From Patescibacteria group bacterium (GTDB lineage Bacteria > Patescibacteriota > UBA1384 > UBA12157 > JAENIV01): DNA of 32,500 bases. Positions within the stretch are counted from its first letter, which is position 1, and every line of letters begins with the position of its first letter. Below are positions 2,379 through 30,329 of this stretch, piece by piece. The stretch spans positions 1 to 32,500 of the forward strand of contig DATEAX010000041.1 of the NCBI GenBank assembly GCA_035288145.1. The letters are read 5' to 3'. The notes below the pieces were generated by a model. That model searched no databases. It was not told the DNA's origin and saw only the letters and a list, made by a program, of their open reading frames with translations. A program made the translations under genes and the position numbers.

Positions 2379-2464
2379 AATCTGTCTTGATGGAATTTGA
2401 TGGAATGACAAGTTAAACACCCAATTAAACATCCAAATGATAAATGGAATAAATAATTTTAGAA

Positions 2465-2496
2465 AATACTTCCATACTACGTAGTATCGAAGTTTT
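2465..2496. repeat. Imperfect 32 bp palindrome with core ATACTACGTAGTAT (terminator-like or operator-like)
   Basis: The sequence aaaatacttccATACTACGTAGTATcgaagtttt has 14 of 16 arm positions pairing. It has an A-run on one side and a T-run on the other. It lies 30 bp upstream of the TrpR-like gene. Confidence 0.6.
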
Positions 2497-2526
2497 AGCA
2501 TAATTTGTAGATAATTAGAGGTAGTG

Positions 2527-3048
2527 ATGGCTAAATTTACCAGGCGACAAAAATTGAGTCCTAAAGAAGAAACGGATTTAATTATCAAATTTTGTCAAGC
2601 GATTGCTTCTATCTCTAAAACAGAGGAAGCGGCATTATTTGTTCGCGATCTCTTGTCGAAACCCGAAGTTAGAATGCTTGCTAAAAGATTAAAGATTGCG
2701 GAAATGTTAATTAAGGGTGAGAAGTATGAGGACATAATCGAGCAATTAAAAGTTAGTGCCTCGACTATCGCACGTGTGAACGTTTGGCTAAACCAATCCG
2801 GCGAGGGCTATCGATTAGTTTTAAACCGAACAAGCAGGATTAAAGAACCCAGGAAACCAGTTTGGACAGGTCTTAAAAGGAAATATCCGATGTACTATTG
2901 GCCTGAAATCCTCCTGAAGGAAATTATTTATTCTGCCAACAAAAAGCAAAAAGACAAACTCAAGCTTTTACTTGATAAGTTAGATGAAAAGAATGAACTA
3001 ATTAAGGAACTCGATGAGATGTTGAGGAAAAACTATCATACTACGTAG
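2527..3048 (+). CDS. TrpR-like (YerC/YecD family) DNA-binding protein with a C-terminal extension
   Basis: The N-terminal roughly 100 aa (LFVRDLLSKPEVRMLAKRLKIAEMLIKGEKYEDIIEQLKVSASTIARVNVWL) matches the Trp-repressor-like YerC/YecD pattern. ATG 2527 lies 5 nt after agagg. The track start at 2524 is a GTG one codon upstream. Confidence 0.75.
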   Translation: MAKFTRRQKLSPKEETDLIIKFCQAIASISKTEEAALFVRDLLSKPEVRMLAKRLKIAEMLIKGEKYEDIIEQLKVSASTIARVNVWLNQSGEGYRLVLNRTSRIKEPRKPVWTGLKRKYPMYYWPEILLKEIIYSANKKQKDKLKLLLDKLDEKNELIKELDEMLRKNYHTT

Positions 3049-3060
3049 TATGATAGTTTT
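3029..3060. terminator. Perfect 32 bp palindrome (bidirectional terminator-like) containing the same ATACTACGTAGTAT core
   Basis: The sequence aaaactatcATACTACGTAGTATgatagtttt is perfectly self-complementary. It overlaps the TAG stop (3046-3048) of the TrpR-like gene. Confidence 0.65.
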
Positions 3061-3125
3061 GTATATACTAGAGCTATTTAGTATAGCATAAATTTCTTCA
3101 AAAGTCAAGAGTCGAGCCCCTTTTC

Positions 3126-3150
3126 TTGTTCGCTTTTTGTATGGTATAAT
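3126..3150 (+). promoter_or_regulatory. Extended -10 promoter upstream of dinB
   Basis: TGGTATAAT lies at 3142-3150. The 13-mer tggtataatatag is repeated exactly at 4525-4537. The -35 element is poor. Confidence 0.5.
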
Positions 3151-3165
3151 ATAGATGGCTATTTC

Positions 3166-3193
3166 GCTAACGGCTAACCGCTAACAGCTAACA
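3166..3193 (+). repeat. Tandem heptanucleotide array (GCTAACN) x4 in the dinB leader
   Basis: Read directly as gctaacg gctaacc gctaaca gctaaca. Confidence 0.9.
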
Positions 3194-3236
3194 GTAATCT
3201 GCTTGAAGGAAAGATAATTATAGATAATACCAACCA

Positions 3237-3257
3237 GCGGTAAGCGGTCTGCGGTAA
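3237..3257 (+). repeat. Tandem heptanucleotide array (GCGGTNN) x3, roughly inverted relative to the first array
   Basis: Read directly as gcggtaa gcggtct gcggtaa. The reverse-complement unit ttaccgc differs by 1 nt from taaccgc in the first array. Confidence 0.85.
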
Positions 3258-3275
3258 GCTGATTTACCAAACATT

Positions 3276-4532
3276 ATGCAACCGCCGAAAGATTACGCCA
3301 ATTTATTTCTGGATATGAATGCTTTTTTTGCTTCGGTTGAACAACAAGTCCAGCCGTCTTTACGAAACAAGCCAATTTGCGTTGCTCCCTACCCGGGCAA
3401 TACCGGCTGCTGTATTGCCAAGTCGTATAAAGCCAAAGCTTTCGGGGTGAAAACCGGCACCCTCGTAGGGGAGGCCAAAAAGCTTTGCCCGCAGATTATC
3501 GTTCTGGAATCCCGTCCCGAACTTTATCTGTTTTATCATCGGGAAATCGTCAAGGTCTTGAAAAATTTCAGTCCTTTTTTGAGAGTTCTTTCGATTGATG
3601 AGTTTAACATCAAATTAACTGGCCTGGACCAAAATCGAGAAAAGGCTCTCGAGATGGCCAGAAAGATCAAAGAAACCATTTTGAAAAAAGTCGGCGATTA
3701 TCTAACTTGTTCGATTGGCATCGGGCCGAATATGTGGCTGGCAAAAGTCGCCGGGGAGCTTGGAAAAGCCTGCCTGCCGGCAGGCAGGCCCGACGGTTTG
3801 GTGGTCGTCGCTCTTGAGGAATTGGGAGTGTGGTATCGGAGCCTGGATTTGATGGATCTTCCTGGGATAAATGTTGCCATGGCGCGCCAGCTTCATCATC
3901 GCAAAATTAAAACTCCCTTTGATTTTTATCTCCAACCCTTGTTCAATCTTTCCCGCTGGTTTGGTCATCCCGGCCGGGTCTGGTTTTATCGTTTGCGCGG
4001 CTTTGAAACCGATGAGATTGAGCCGGCAACCAAATCCATCGGTCATCAGCATGTTTTGGCGCCGGAGTATCGGACAATCGCCGCGGCCCGGCGGGTGTTG
4101 GTAAAACTTGCGGAAAAGTGCGCCCAGCGTCTTCGGGCGAAAAATTTGTGGACGGGAGGAGTATCTCTTGGGATAAAATTTTTGAATGGACCGTTTTGGG
4201 AAAAAAATGCCGCCACCGACCTTGTTGCCGATAGCCAAAATATCCAAAGAATTGCTCTTTCGCTTTATGATGCTTGTCCGATTCAAAAACCGCCTTTGAG
4301 GATTGCCGTGACCCTTTTCAATCTCACCCAAGTTCGCGGCGAGCAGATTTCCTTGTTTTCTAAAATCGAGAAATCGCGCCGCCTGTCGCAAATGATGGAT
4401 GAGATTAACGATAAATACGGTCCGGAGACAATCTATCCGGCCTCGATGTTCGGAGCCTCGGAGGCCGCCCCGACGAGGATTCCCTTTGGCAATCCTGCCA
4501 GAATTGGCAATTTTGACCAAAATGTGGTATAA
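3276..4532 (+). CDS. dinB: Y-family DNA polymerase IV
   Basis: The N-terminal motif is LDMNAFFASVEQ. It also has SIDEFN and the GIGPNMWLAKVAG...KP.G helix-hairpin-helix region, which are typical of DinB/UmuC. Confidence 0.9.
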   Translation: MQPPKDYANLFLDMNAFFASVEQQVQPSLRNKPICVAPYPGNTGCCIAKSYKAKAFGVKTGTLVGEAKKLCPQIIVLESRPELYLFYHREIVKVLKNFSPFLRVLSIDEFNIKLTGLDQNREKALEMARKIKETILKKVGDYLTCSIGIGPNMWLAKVAGELGKACLPAGRPDGLVVVALEELGVWYRSLDLMDLPGINVAMARQLHHRKIKTPFDFYLQPLFNLSRWFGHPGRVWFYRLRGFETDEIEPATKSIGHQHVLAPEYRTIAAARRVLVKLAEKCAQRLRAKNLWTGGVSLGIKFLNGPFWEKNAATDLVADSQNIQRIALSLYDACPIQKPPLRIAVTLFNLTQVRGEQISLFSKIEKSRRLSQMMDEINDKYGPETIYPASMFGASEAAPTRIPFGNPARIGNFDQNVV

Positions 4533-27512: not shown

Positions 27513-27551
27513 ATAACCTATTTTGGGTTATACCACAATAGGATATACAAT
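27513..27551 (+). promoter_or_regulatory. Promoter with an overlapping inverted repeat (C-box-like) for a leaderless HTH gene
   Basis: TTGGGT (27523-27528), a 17 nt spacer, then TACAAT (27546-27551). The predicted TSS lies only about 4-5 nt before ATG 27562, and there is no SD. The inverted repeat ATAACC-n7-GGTTAT (27513-27531) overlaps the -35. Confidence 0.5.
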
Positions 27552-27561
27552 ATAAACAAGT

Positions 27562-27783
27562 ATGTCAAAGTCAATTTATTCAAAAGAATATAAAAGTGTT
27601 TTAGAAAAGCTTAAAAAAGCCCGTTTTGAAGTTGGGTTGAAGCAAGAGGACGTGGCCCAAAAATTAAAAAAGCCCCAATCTTATATTTCAAAAATAGAAA
27701 GGGGCGAGAGAAGAGTTGATATTACCGAATTAAAAGAGTTGGCAAAAATTTATAAAAAGAATATAAACTTTTTTGTTGAGTAA
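27562..27783 (+). CDS. XRE-family HTH protein, controller (C) protein-like
   Basis: The 73 aa protein has the HTH_3 pattern [48 protein letters not shown]. It lies 2 nt upstream of the next ORF. Confidence 0.8.
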
Positions 27784-27785
27784 TT

Positions 27786-28790
27786 ATGTCTAAAATTCAA
27801 GAATTATTATCAGGCAAAACGGATCAAGTTAACTATGAAAAAATAGTCAAAGATTATCCGTGGATTATAAAAAGGGGACAAAATTGTATTTTGAGTCCAG
27901 ATAGTGACGGTTTATTATGTGGTCTATTTATGTCCACTTATTTAGATTGGCGAATAAAAGGTTTTTATGATGGGAAGGTAATGTTGTTAGATAAAGATAT
28001 TTCGGCTAAAGATTGCGTATTTTTGGATATGGAAGTTTTTAGAAAGGATATAAAAAGCGTTGGTCACCATATGGTCCAATTTAATAAAAAGAAAAGGCCG
28101 TCAAACTGGAATAATTATAAAAATTGCATCCAGCCAAACAATTTACGAAATTATGACGGATACAAGGACTTCCGCTTAAAATATCCGTTAGCGACTATAC
28201 ATTTTTTAATTGGGATAGTTGGCTCAAAAATAAAATTAACAATTCCTCAATCGGCTATTTGTCCATTGTTTTATGTTGATGGCGTGTTCAAAAACTTATT
28301 TGGCTATCCGGAAAATTGTATTGATTGGTTAAGATATTTAGATGCTAAATCAAATAAAAATAACTTGCATGAAATATTTTTTAACGAGCACTATTCTGTT
28401 TATAATTTAATGGTGGCCTTAAAGGACTTTTTTACGCAAATCAGTGAAATTAGCGAAAATAGAAATGGTAATGATAAAATAAAGATTTCTAACACAAAAG
28501 GAGAACCAGTAAACCCGAAAATGAGTGGCAAAACTTGCGAATTAAATGAAGAAGAAAAGCAAAAATCAGAAAAGTTTTTAAAAATTTTATCGGGATTGAC
28601 GAATTGGAATTATAAAAAAGAAAATTGGCAGTGGGATAACTTAAAAATTTATCAGTTTAGTAAATTTGCCATTAAACCGAATAATAGAAATTTTGAAGTA
28701 ATGATTGCCAAAAACCCAATTTCTTGGGCAATGACTAGCGGCTTAGCCATAGAATATACTATAGATGACAAAAATATTTTGTTAAAATAG
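27786..28790 (+). CDS. Uncharacterised 334 aa protein. By position it is the nuclease/effector candidate. It has DHH-like motifs.
   Basis: I recognise no family with confidence. The candidate motifs are ILSPDSDGLLCG (DxD), CVFLDME (D) and SVGHHM (a variant of DHH). It is co-directional with the C-like gene and converges on the methyltransferase gene with a 9 nt overlap. Confidence 0.55.
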   Translation: MSKIQELLSGKTDQVNYEKIVKDYPWIIKRGQNCILSPDSDGLLCGLFMSTYLDWRIKGFYDGKVMLLDKDISAKDCVFLDMEVFRKDIKSVGHHMVQFNKKKRPSNWNNYKNCIQPNNLRNYDGYKDFRLKYPLATIHFLIGIVGSKIKLTIPQSAICPLFYVDGVFKNLFGYPENCIDWLRYLDAKSNKNNLHEIFFNEHYSVYNLMVALKDFFTQISEISENRNGNDKIKISNTKGEPVNPKMSGKTCELNEEEKQKSEKFLKILSGLTNWNYKKENWQWDNLKIYQFSKFAIKPNNRNFEVMIAKNPISWAMTSGLAIEYTIDDKNILLK

Positions 28791-30233
28791 TTTTCGACTA
28801 GTCGTTCCTTCCTCTTTAAGACGTTTTTTGGCTAATTCGCAATAGTCATTAGATATATCTATTCCAATATAATTTCTCTCTAATTGAATAGCCGCCAATA
28901 CTGTTGTTCCGCTACCCACAAATGGGTCAAGTACAATACCTGTAGGTGGACAAAAACATTGAATAAAATCATACGGCAAACGATCGGGAAATGTTGCTGG
29001 ATGTTGATGTTTAAGACGAGTACCATCTCCGGCTGTCATATACTCCCAAATTGTGCCACGACATTTCCTTAGGTTTATGGTAATTGGACGAGTAGCGATT
29101 CTAACACCATTAGTGAGACGAGTACCGCCACCAGTCATTGTTTTACCACCATGTTTTGACGGGATTTTTAATGGTTCTTTATTAAAGTATTGCGGCCGTT
29201 CTCCTTTCAGAAAAATTGGCATATATTCATGGTCAACACGGAAACGTTTATTCCACCAAGCGCCCTCTGCACCATATTTTCTGTAAATTACTGTTTCAAA
29301 TAATTTAAAGCCGATGTTGTCAACCCAATCTATGATAGTTCTAAAAGAAGTTAGCGATTTGCCAAAATCTTTTGTTTGATCTTGGATAACCATAACTGCT
29401 ATGCCGCCTTCTTTCAGAACGCGATATATTTCTTTACCGGTAGCGTGTAAATCGAAGCTAAAACCATTATATTTTCTGATTCCGTCGTAAGGTGGAGATG
29501 TGACAACTAAATCAATGGAATTGCTAGGAAATTTTTTAAGCTCGCTCACTGCATCGCCACAAATAATTTTATTTAGTGGCACTGTGCTAAATTTTTTTAT
29601 TCCTTTTTGAGGTAATAATTCCGTTGCCTGTAATGCTTCTTCATTTTTAATTACATCAATAACAATACCTTGAATAACAATTCCTCTGTCTTTTTTAATA
29701 ATTATTGGCTCAATAGTCTTATTGGCTGGCTGTAACCTTATGTACCCCTTTTCTTTGTAAAATTTTTTAAGCGTTGCTTCATAGTTATCTAATAAAGCAA
29801 CTACCTTTTGTCCATTTTCGGCAACGCTTTGTTGTTTAACTAAAATTATATCGCCATCTTTGATGTTTTCATCTATCATACTATTACCCAAAACTCGTAA
29901 GGCATAAAATTCGCCAGAATGAGGAAGTTTATTTTGTGGCACAGCGATTGTTTCTTTGTCTTGTATTGCCTCAATTGGTTGACCGGCGGCAATAATACCG
30001 AGTAAAGGAATTTTTATCATTGTATTTATGTCATATATACCAAGAGCACGAGGTCTATTTTTGTCTCTTTTTAAATATCCTAAATCTTGGAGTCTTGAGA
30101 TATGAAAATGAGCCGTTGAAACAGAAGAAAGTTTAAGATATCTTTTAACCTCTTCTAAAGAAGGAGCATAATTATGTCTGGTTATAAAGTTCCTGACAAA
30201 ATCAAGAACTTGTTTTTGGCGTTTTGTAAGCAC
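28782..30233 (-). CDS. LexA (wHTH plus S24 peptidase) fused to a beta-class N4-C/N6-A DNA methyltransferase
   Basis: - Residues 1 to about 200 align end to end with LexA. They include LTKRQKQVLDF, the cleavage site IPLLGIIAAGQPIEA, the Ser motif LRVLGNSM, the Lys motif EATLKKF, and the C-terminal GIVIDVIKN.
- The remainder carries methyltransferase motif IV (DLVVTSPPY), followed much later by motif I (VLDPFVGSGTT).
- There is no stop or Met at the junction.
- The start is probably GTG 30233, 8 nt after aaggag. The track start GTG 30242 overlaps the SD. Confidence 0.85.
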   Translation of the reverse strand: MLTKRQKQVLDFVRNFITRHNYAPSLEEVKRYLKLSSVSTAHFHISRLQDLGYLKRDKNRPRALGIYDINTMIKIPLLGIIAAGQPIEAIQDKETIAVPQNKLPHSGEFYALRVLGNSMIDENIKDGDIILVKQQSVAENGQKVVALLDNYEATLKKFYKEKGYIRLQPANKTIEPIIIKKDRGIVIQGIVIDVIKNEEALQATELLPQKGIKKFSTVPLNKIICGDAVSELKKFPSNSIDLVVTSPPYDGIRKYNGFSFDLHATGKEIYRVLKEGGIAVMVIQDQTKDFGKSLTSFRTIIDWVDNIGFKLFETVIYRKYGAEGAWWNKRFRVDHEYMPIFLKGERPQYFNKEPLKIPSKHGGKTMTGGGTRLTNGVRIATRPITINLRKCRGTIWEYMTAGDGTRLKHQHPATFPDRLPYDFIQCFCPPTGIVLDPFVGSGTTVLAAIQLERNYIGIDISNDYCELAKKRLKEEGTTSRKLF

Positions 30234-30258
30234 TTGACACACTCCTTTTTACTGATTA

Positions 30259-30294
30259 CGATTATATTGTAATCGAAAATAAATCGAAAGTCAA
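30259..30294 (-). promoter_or_regulatory. Promoter of the LexA-methyltransferase gene with a palindromic operator over the -10
   Basis: On the minus strand: TTGACT (30294-30289), a 17 nt spacer, then TACAAT (30271-30266). The 17 bp palindrome CGATTATATTGTAATCG (30259-30275, 7 of 8 arm pairs) covers the -10. Two direct AATCGAAA copies lie 11 bp apart (30271-30278 and 30282-30289). Confidence 0.6.
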
Positions 30295-30329
30295 TTGTGG
30301 ATAACTTTGAACTAAGAAAGGGAGTTAAA

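Follow-up and report, generated by a model that had tools for sequence, protein, structure and literature searches.

A LexA-methyltransferase fusion of Patescibacteria as the methylase of a mobile restriction-modification cassette with predicted damage-responsive control

Main finding

We analyzed a 32,500-nucleotide (nt) stretch of DNA from a Patescibacteria group bacterium (contig DATEAX010000041.1 of assembly GCA_035288145.1, positions 1 to 32,500 of the forward strand; hereafter "the window") and found that an uninterrupted open reading frame (ORF) on its minus strand (28782..30242; 486 amino acids [aa] counted from the first GTG) encodes a complete LexA repressor that continues into a DNA methyltransferase. 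This fusion is the methylase (M) gene of a type II-like restriction-modification (R-M) cassette that is conserved and moves horizontally, and which also contains a controller (C) gene and a putative restriction endonuclease (R) gene. We regard it as probable, if only by a small measure, that self-cleavage of the LexA part, triggered by activated RecA, would derepress the methylase after DNA damage or self-restriction. The evidence comes from the domains and catalytic residues of the fusion, from its recurrence among Patescibacteria, from the predicted operator in its promoter, from the conserved neighborhood of the gene and from the scarcity of AGNCT in carrier genomes.

A complete LexA continues into a beta-class methyltransferase

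An initial annotation, made from the sequence alone, had described a full-length, apparently cleavable LexA and a methyltransferase in a single ORF, and profile searches bear out this description. Matches to the Pfam families LexA_DNA_bind (residues 4-66), Peptidase_S24 (residues 79-195) and N6_N4_Mtase (residues 243-473) were found in the order that had been predicted (accessions and E-values in Table 1), while NCBIfam TIGR00498, the lexA equivalog, matched residues 4-200 with 180.9 bits (cutoff 110.95). The GTG at 30231-30233 is likely the start codon, giving a protein of 483 aa that opens MLTKRQ..., because homologue starts and Shine-Dalgarno (SD) spacing agree on this position; nearly all homologues (480-487 aa in length) open MxTK(R/K)QKQ, and an AAGGAG SD sequence (30242-30247) is located 8 nt upstream of this GTG.

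The domain at the N-terminus, a winged helix-turn-helix (wHTH) with SVSTAHFHISRL as its recognition helix region, could be aligned over its full length with the LexA proteins of Thermotoga maritima and Escherichia coli. In the alignment to E. coli LexA structures, IIAA/GQP (the slash marking the cleavage bond) falls on VAA/GEP, GNSM on GMSM and TLKKF on TVKRL, which confirms that the Ala-Gly, Ser and Lys previously singled out occupy the catalytic positions. LexA homology stops at VIKNEE, opposite the VIRNGD at which E. coli LexA naturally ends; the N-terminal approximately 200 aa thus represent LexA through its natural end, and the junction that follows contains, as had been claimed, no stop codon, no Met and no SD sequence.

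In the methyltransferase half, motif IV (TSPPY; residues 245-249, nt 29487-29501, with SPPY at nt 29487-29498) precedes motif I (DPFVGSG; residues 436-442, nt 28908-28928), the order that marks the beta class and that the initial annotation had reported, and the match to the Pfam family spans the entire model. N4-cytosine enzymes typically show SPPY; the closest solved relatives of this half are TTHA0409, N4-cytosine methyltransferases and M.PvuII. An AlphaFold2 (AF2) model of the whole fusion was poor (predicted local distance difference test, pLDDT, 66) and was not used.

The fusion recurs and retains its catalytic residues

A sequencing or assembly artefact (i.e., a frameshift or a chimeric join of two genes), for which nothing speaks beyond the general possibility of such errors in metagenome assemblies, deserves practically no credence. 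It was ruled out by the breadth of occurrence of the fusion: an identical protein was found on 6 independent contigs, which come from different samples, more than 120 clusters (90% identity) share the length and the domains of the fusion, 52 species carry it intact, and the linker is conserved. The ORF thus represents a genuine fusion. A methylase-specific scan of approximately 185,000 species genomes (one genome per species) found the window-type methylase in 168 of them, and among 80 species-level loci with a close relative of the methylase, which were compared using tblastn, 52 carry the full LexA fusion.

The Ala-Gly, Ser and Lys are all kept in 53 of 54 species-level fusions, in which the LexA part is approximately 50-75% identical to that in the window, and methylase motifs IV and I are invariant in the 54. 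As the same residues are also kept in 41 of 41 independent LexA-methylase clusters (see below), it is difficult to see how they could have been retained unless catalysis is under selection. The only full-length fusion that has lost them (locus L057, 6001-7431; loci are designated here by L numbers) has GD, Y and G instead; both the catalytically dead S24 domain and a TTTCTAT repeat operator are still present at this locus.

LexA is also fused to other classes of methylases

When the whole fusion was searched against 1.84 billion representative proteins, dozens of clusters of 430-890 aa with a full LexA at the N-terminus were found. We scanned 41 further LexA-methylase clusters (mutual identity at most 50%), all of which contain LexA_DNA_bind and Peptidase_S24 and show invariant Ala-Gly, Ser and Lys. 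Their C-terminal domains are N6_N4_Mtase (30), Eco57I-type (6), N6_Mtase (5), D12/Dam (4), MmeI-type (4), TaqI_C (2) and C5 DNA_methylase (1). All source-named members of LexA-methylase clusters are Patescibacteria. That the same module occurs on all major methylase classes and keeps its catalytic residues in each speaks for a general design open to selection and not for an accident, and the data suggest that Patescibacteria couple the DNA methylation by which they protect themselves to the signal for DNA damage.

The initial annotation had regarded the architecture as unusual. This holds for the literature, in which a limited and hence provisional search found no description of a LexA-methyltransferase fusion (a weak negative); it does not hold for Patescibacteria, where the architecture is common and is found with all of the major classes of DNA methyltransferases. 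In databases, these proteins carry the automatic name "transcriptional repressor LexA".

On one contig (L055), a second, unrelated LexA-methylase of 621 aa with permuted N6_N4 motifs (564-2429) precedes the window-type fusion, 2.5 kb upstream of it, and is followed by an EcoRII-C-family endonuclease (2455-3204); this represents an independent case of the architecture in a textbook R-M pair. The operators of the two fusions differ (TTTCGGT repeats vs. TGACACC repeats). A stand-alone LexA considered for this contig was ruled out, as it is this 621-aa LexA fused to a different methylase.

The methylase promoter contains a candidate operator that changes with the recognition helix

The spacer between the predicted -35 and -10 elements of the methylase gene is filled by a period-11 direct repeat (Table 1), a candidate operator for the LexA part. 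Such a repeat is present at the same place of the promoter in nearly every homologue, while in a few homologues it is inverted and located between the -10 element and the start codon. Half-sites and recognition helices form matching pairs, i.e., TTTC(G/T)AT with STAHFH, TTCGGT with ST(I/V)HQH, GCTCGGG with PSTAHEH and TTAGG with PTVHQH, and some relatives show GTTC-N7-GTTC, the direct-repeat box of alphaproteobacterial LexA (PMC8565304), as operator. Because the half-site of the spacer-filling repeat changes together with the recognition helix, we infer that the fusion represses its own promoter.

Among relatives, the methylase half remains 70-88% identical while the LexA half drops to 50-60% identity, and operator specificity diversifies. 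A search of the window and of locus flanks of 6-10 kb found no further operator copies in the window, and the perfect operator occurs once per locus. Moreover, three contigs (L055, L066 and L074) each carry two LexA- or wHTH-methylases with different operators. Overall, the LexA module looks, as judged from these sequences, like a private autoregulator of its cassette; a single operator per locus, varied specificities and two systems per contig fit an element-specific "immunity" and not a global SOS repressor. On two of these contigs (L074, 1395-2520; L066, 3737-4860), a wHTH without S24 is fused to a different N6_N4 methylase (26-28% identical), in tandem with a window-type wHTH-methylase cassette.

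In the main clade of relatives (L003, L016-L034 and L056-L059), the -10 element TATAAT is located 6 nt from the ATG and no SD sequence is present, which suggests that these methylase mRNAs may be leaderless. The window copy differs from this clade in that it starts with GTG and has a 32-nt leader with AAGGAG.

Next to the -35 element lies a sequence that fits the DnaA-box consensus perfectly (TGTGGATAA on the plus strand). The same box or a one-base variant is found within 130 nt upstream of 56 of 63 LexA- or wHTH-methylase genes, at varying distance and orientation, and it is constant while the LexA operator varies. No DnaA box was found upstream of stand-alone methylases outside Patescibacteria; one is present upstream of the methylase gene of L068, a 366-aa variant. 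The box may couple methylase expression to replication initiation. The possibility that TGTGGATAA is a general promoter element of this organism was ruled out, since it occurs only once in the window.

The window also contains a gene for a Y-family (DinB/UmuC-like) polymerase (3276..4532). The region upstream of this gene (3127-3275) shows a GTTC-type period-11 repeat, TGTTCGC-TTTT-TGTATGG, that abuts a TATAAT. It is followed by a leader in which GCTAAC(G/C/A) heptads occur four times in tandem (3166-3193), along with two copies of GCGGTAAGC that are partly complementary to the heptads. This region could be a host SOS box with a structured leader, and the different repeat may reflect a further LexA specificity encoded by the genome. 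Apart from this dinB-like gene, no recA or dinB homologues were found in the fetched loci.

The fusion is part of a mobile cassette with a controller gene and a conserved partner

In the window, the C gene is followed on the same strand by a gene for a 334-aa partner protein, on which the methylase gene converges. The partner gene adjoins the methylase gene in 75 of 80 loci, including hosts whose methylase has no LexA, and 4 of the 5 loci without an adjacent partner end at a contig edge. The two genes are convergent in 74 of these 75 loci, with a spacing between an overlap of 12 nt and a distance of 108 nt from the methylase end. A C-protein gene is located upstream of the partner gene in 29 of the 80 loci, and in these 29 loci the symmetric C-box abutting the -10 element is conserved and co-varying.

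The N-terminus of the methylase beside the partner is variable; it may be a full LexA, a wHTH only, another helix-turn-helix (HTH; L070) or absent, or the S24 may be encoded by a separate gene. Fusions to a wHTH only (353-373 aa) are found in seven loci (L062, L065-L067, L069, L074 and L087), five of which were scored as such by automated locus classification. In the split form (L060, L061, L063, L064 and L083), a separate S24 gene is followed by a gene for a 285-aa methylase. In L060, for example, a 205-aa S24 repressor (1170-1787) with Cys-Gly at the cleavage position and with Ser and Lys is encoded 24 nt upstream of the methylase gene; loci of this type keep the partner and the C gene of the cassette. 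Stand-alone methylases were found in Bacteroidota, Gammaproteobacteria, Altarchaeum and Pacearchaeota (methylase identity 70-79%). The partner thus travels with the methylase into archaea and into bacteria outside the candidate phyla radiation (CPR), where the LexA is absent.

Methylase homologues on 55 viral contigs (L168-L222; phage or giant-virus-bin) are all stand-alone and mostly 50-68% identical; 51 of them have no partner and 4 keep it. As is usual for phage orphan methylases, they look like copies taken from an R-M system; presumably they serve in anti-restriction, with a specificity that is the same or similar. A prophage repressor was ruled out as an identity for the fusion, as none of these 55 contigs carries a LexA fusion and the window flanks are housekeeping (gyrB, gyrA, infB and obg). 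Across loci, the fusion cassette sits in differing genomic neighborhoods. In L003 (11707-13021), the partner is missing and a type VI retron (RT_VI, 4e-26, and an HTH protein) takes the convergent position, followed by a Dcm/Vsr pair in what represents a defence island; the idea that the partner itself is a retron reverse transcriptase was dismissed, since the 332-aa reverse transcriptase of L003 is unrelated to it. In two related genomes, inverted repeats of approximately 300 nt enclose the whole cassette (L031, 4762-5057 and 8760-9055, 100% complementary; L027, 2317-2633 and 7268-7598, 88-98% complementary). These repeats showed no match in Rfam, and were ruled out as ends of a mobile element because they are present in L027 and L031 only and not in the window or in four other loci.

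The partner is likely the endonuclease of the cassette

No match to the partner was found in Pfam (E-values up to 10), in PADLOC, with phmmer or in a PDB profile search (50-sequence profile). The AF2 model of the protein is confident (pLDDT 92.6; predicted TM-score, pTM, 0.92), and the top Foldseek hits in both libraries used were RecJ, RecJ-Cdc45, GAN, Cdc45, PggH and other DHH phosphohydrolases, all of them weak (best E-values 8.9e-3 for PDB and 5.5e-3 for the viral library; TM-score at most approximately 0.3). Invariant DHH-like residues (SPD39-S-D41-G, D81 and G93-H94-H95) are located on successive strands of a parallel sheet. A DHH fold is thus plausible for the modeled partner, and the protein is likely the endonuclease of the cassette. 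As compared to DHH phosphoesterases and RecJ, it shares the DxDG, D and (G)HH motifs as well as the top Foldseek hits, but it differs in having no Pfam or sequence-profile match, a Gly in place of the first Asp of DHH and weak fold scores. We know of no restriction enzyme with a DHH fold; if true, this would be a new fold for such an enzyme.

Carriers of the cassette avoid AGNCT

To assess word depletion, observed word counts were compared to a maximal-order Markov expectation in 887,820 pooled bases of module-carrying loci (fusion, wHTH-only, split and stand-alone). AGCCT/AGGCT was the most depleted 5-mer (265 observed vs. 842 expected; observed-to-expected ratio [O/E] 0.31, z = -19.9), followed by AGACT/AGTCT (O/E 0.53). 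The O/E of AGCCT/AGGCT was 0.35 in full-fusion loci, and depletion was deeper in unrelated non-CPR hosts of stand-alone methylases (0.13 for AGCCT/AGGCT and 0.22 for AGACT/AGTCT). As controls, we used 80 related Patescibacteria contigs (L088-L167) fetched via GyrB, none of which carries the cassette within its flanks; here, the pooled O/E was 0.74 and 0.81, respectively. Among loci of at least 8 kb (60 per set), the median per-locus O/E for AGCCT and AGACT combined was 0.37 in carriers as compared to 0.78 in controls (P = 2.5e-9; Mann-Whitney test). These depletions in carriers point to real restriction, and AGNCT would, judging from word depletion, be the recognition site of the cassette. The O/E values of the controls appear bimodal, most of them being close to 1.0 and a few close to 0.1, a distribution that would result if a small share of these genomes had such a system at another place; the control contigs with carrier-like depletion (L109, L110, L135, L151 and L161) probably belong to genomes with an isospecific system elsewhere. 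To our knowledge, no enzyme with AGNCT specificity has been described.

Table 1. Features of the cassette and of the LexA-methyltransferase fusion in the window
Feature	Position	Strand	Basis or remark
C-box-like symmetric operator ACCTATTTTGGGTTATACCACAATAGGAT	27516-27544	+	abuts -10 TACAAT (27546-27551), upstream of C gene
73-aa XRE-type HTH protein, controller (C) protein of R gene	27562..27783	+	Pfam HTH_3 3e-14; PADLOC Control_protein 1e-7
334-aa partner, putative restriction endonuclease	27786..28790	+	converges on methylase; 9 bp overlap with its 3' end
LexA-methyltransferase fusion gene	28782..30233	-	483 aa and stop; mechanical ORF reaches GTG at 30242
Beta-class N6/N4 DNA methyltransferase domain, residues 240-470	28824..29516	-	PF01555 7e-40, full length; PADLOC MTase_II 8e-46
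Peptidase S24 domain, residues 76-192	29658..30008	-	PF00717 7e-29
Lys156	29766-29768	-	aligned with E. coli LexA Lys156
Ser118	29880-29882	-	aligned with E. coli LexA Ser119
Ala83-Gly84, predicted self-cleavage bond in IPLLGIIAA/GQPIEAI	29982..29987	-	corresponds to E. coli LexA Ala84-Gly85
LexA winged-HTH DNA-binding domain, residues 1-63	30045..30233	-	PF01726 4e-17; LexA structure alignment
Predicted methylase promoter: -35 TTGACT (30289-30294), 17-nt spacer, -10 TACAAT (30266-30271)	30266..30294	-	sequence
Period-11 direct-repeat candidate operator TTTCGAT-TTAT-TTTCGAT	30272-30289	-	fills -35/-10 spacer
Perfect DnaA-box consensus, TGTGGATAA on +, TTATCCACA on -	30296..30304	.	1 nt upstream of -35; only exact window copy

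Proposed mechanism and alternative explanations

We propose that the LexA module, as a dimer, would bind the period-11 repeat in the spacer of the methylase promoter, and that the resulting negative autoregulation would set the methylase level, as it does in HTH-methylases such as M.SsoII. Activated RecA would form upon DNA damage, also when the endonuclease of the cassette breaks the DNA because methylation lags, and would trigger cleavage at Ala83-Gly84; such cleavage is expected because the regulator is a complete S24 autoprotease. It would part the wHTH from its dimerizing partner, the wHTH would leave the operator and the promoter would be derepressed. Methylase synthesis would then rise and, together with the S24-methylase fragments, would push up the methylase-to-endonuclease ratio until the damage signal ends. 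In this scheme, we infer that the protein binds DNA and depends on RecA, in which direction the effect goes, and what becomes of the methylase and its activity after cleavage. With ...IIAA as its last residues, the N-terminal fragment would resemble cleaved E. coli LexA, whose VAA end is recognized by ClpXP.

Several findings weigh against this proposal. Catalysis by S24 is not required by the cassette, as relatives have a wHTH only, a separate S24, another HTH, nothing or a dead S24 (L057); the wHTH-only and dead-S24 relatives indicate that the cassette can work without cleavage. Cleavage could equally destabilize the methylase. Furthermore, the partner falls in no restriction-endonuclease fold or family recognized by Pfam, PADLOC or PDB sequence comparison, and it is considered a nuclease on account of its context, the depletion of AGNCT and fold matches that are weak.

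The relatives without a working S24 also provide the case for an unlikely but serious alternative, in which the LexA module would be only a dimeric DNA-binding autoregulator, with S24 used for dimerization, with no cleavage in vivo and with no link to SOS. The same cassette runs without S24 in its wHTH-only, other-HTH (L070) and stand-alone forms, and L057 retains a catalytically dead S24 domain; under this explanation, the retention of Ala-Gly, Ser and Lys in 53 of 54 fusions and in 41 of 41 independent clusters is hard to account for. Conversely, cleavage may occur and yet serve a suicide (i.e., abortive-infection-like) switch, in which activated RecA, arising for instance as a phage replicates, would lead to a destabilized or inactivated methylase while the longer-lived endonuclease would cut newly made, unmethylated DNA and kill the infected cell. 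R-M systems can act as addiction modules (PMC3874152), CPR defence depends on R-M and abortive infection (PMC4742961), and some copies of the cassette adjoin other defence genes, e.g., the type VI retron in L003. Both outcomes had been considered in the initial annotation, and we favor derepression with more protection. Cleavage would also lift the repressor off the methylase promoter, which should raise synthesis, and no degron is evident in the sequence; the suicide switch thus seems decidedly unlikely, even though the sequence does not separate it from the protective outcome. In work by Neher et al. in 2003, both cleavage fragments of E. coli LexA reportedly became protease substrates.

It is very unlikely that the fusion is the housekeeping LexA of the organism, controlling its SOS regulon, with a methylase attached by chance. 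Such a role would agree with the score above the lexA equivalog cutoff and the NCBI name LexA, with the absence of a second visible LexA from the 32.5-kb window, and with the fact that the nearest source-named LexA clusters of approximately 200 aa come from other phyla. It is at odds with a fusion that is found in varied neighborhoods, accompanied by an endonuclease and a C protein, that belongs to a methylase type found in only 168 of approximately 185,000 species genomes, and that occurs in pairs with different operators on single contigs (L055, L066 and L074, counting LexA- and wHTH-methylases). Moreover, the methylase remains 70-88% identical among relatives whose operators have diverged in specificity, each locus has its operator only once, and the Y-family polymerase gene of the window has a different GTTC-type repeat and not the operator of the fusion.

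Damage-triggered derepression of the methylase is, overall, the explanation that we prefer for the window cassette. A wider proposal, which we put forward tentatively and hold to be somewhat more open to doubt than to acceptance, is that Patescibacteria repeatedly built a complete RecA-responsive LexA into R-M methyltransferases (N4C, N6A and C5), giving an unrecognized, damage-sensing type of R-M control in which breaks, those from self-restriction included, would lead to cleavage of the repressor and boost modification, and that the partner in the window would be the first restriction enzyme with a DHH/RecJ fold, with AGNCT as a new specificity.

Significance

Patescibacteria are largely without CRISPR and depend on R-M (PMC4742961), which raises the question of how many toxic R-M systems are balanced in tiny genomes. 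If our proposal is true, the "antitoxin" of an R-M system would be wired directly to the DNA-damage signal via a RecA-sensitive, self-destructing repressor, which would represent a built-in restriction alleviation for type II systems. The cassette also offers a candidate new restriction-enzyme fold and specificity, as well as a set of naturally occurring LexA wHTH domains, each paired with its operator, that is useful for studies on the evolution of LexA specificity. In addition, caution is advisable with "LexA" annotations in CPR genomes, as they may not mark an SOS regulon. The hypothesis is experimentally tractable with one recombinant protein and a reporter.

Comparison with known systems

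Methylases with an N-terminal HTH (M.SsoII, M.EcoRII, M.MspI and M.Ecl18kI) repress their own promoters (PMC3874152), and such simple N-terminal HTH methylases are the only ones covered in this review of R-M regulation. The fusion resembles SsoII-like enzymes in its N-terminal DNA-binding domain, in a predicted operator that overlaps the methylase promoter and in its proposed negative autoregulation. It differs from them in having for its regulator an entire LexA (wHTH and S24 autoprotease) in which cleavage site and Ser-Lys dyad are intact, so that the repressor should be destroyable upon a RecA signal, and in that its operator is a period-11 direct repeat and not a palindrome. C proteins, on the other hand, time endonuclease expression (PMC3874152). 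The window cassette shares with C-protein R-M systems (PvuII, BamHI, Esp1396I and AhdI) a small HTH gene and a symmetric C-box before an endonuclease gene that converges on the methylase gene. Unlike in these systems, the candidate endonuclease falls outside the known families of restriction enzymes and has a DHH/RecJ-like look, and the methylase bears LexA as a second, independent regulator.

With canonical LexA (E. coli and T. maritima), the fusion shares domain order, the positions of the cleavage site, Ser and Lys, and an operator at its own gene; with alphaproteobacterial LexA it shares the period-11 direct repeat, and some of its relatives use GTTC-N7-GTTC itself. Unlike canonical LexA, it continues into a 280-aa enzyme, represents a mobile module that is sometimes present twice per contig, and has a single operator of its own in each cassette, while the window and the locus flanks give no indication of a regulon.

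Unbalanced or post-segregational restriction induces SOS (PMC3874152), the signal to which the fusion would respond. As in restriction alleviation of type I systems, a damage signal would, in our proposal, shift the balance from restriction towards protection of unmodified own DNA. In type I R-M of E. coli, alleviation after DNA damage is achieved by ClpXP, which degrades HsdR; a host protease thus destroys the endonuclease there, whereas self-cleavage of a repressor would raise modification here. S24 repressors such as lambda CI and SetR, as well as CapH/CapP, similarly provide a mobile or defence element with its own damage-sensitive repressor and element-specific operators; in those systems the repressor is a separate protein, while in the fusion it is covalently part of the enzyme that it regulates.

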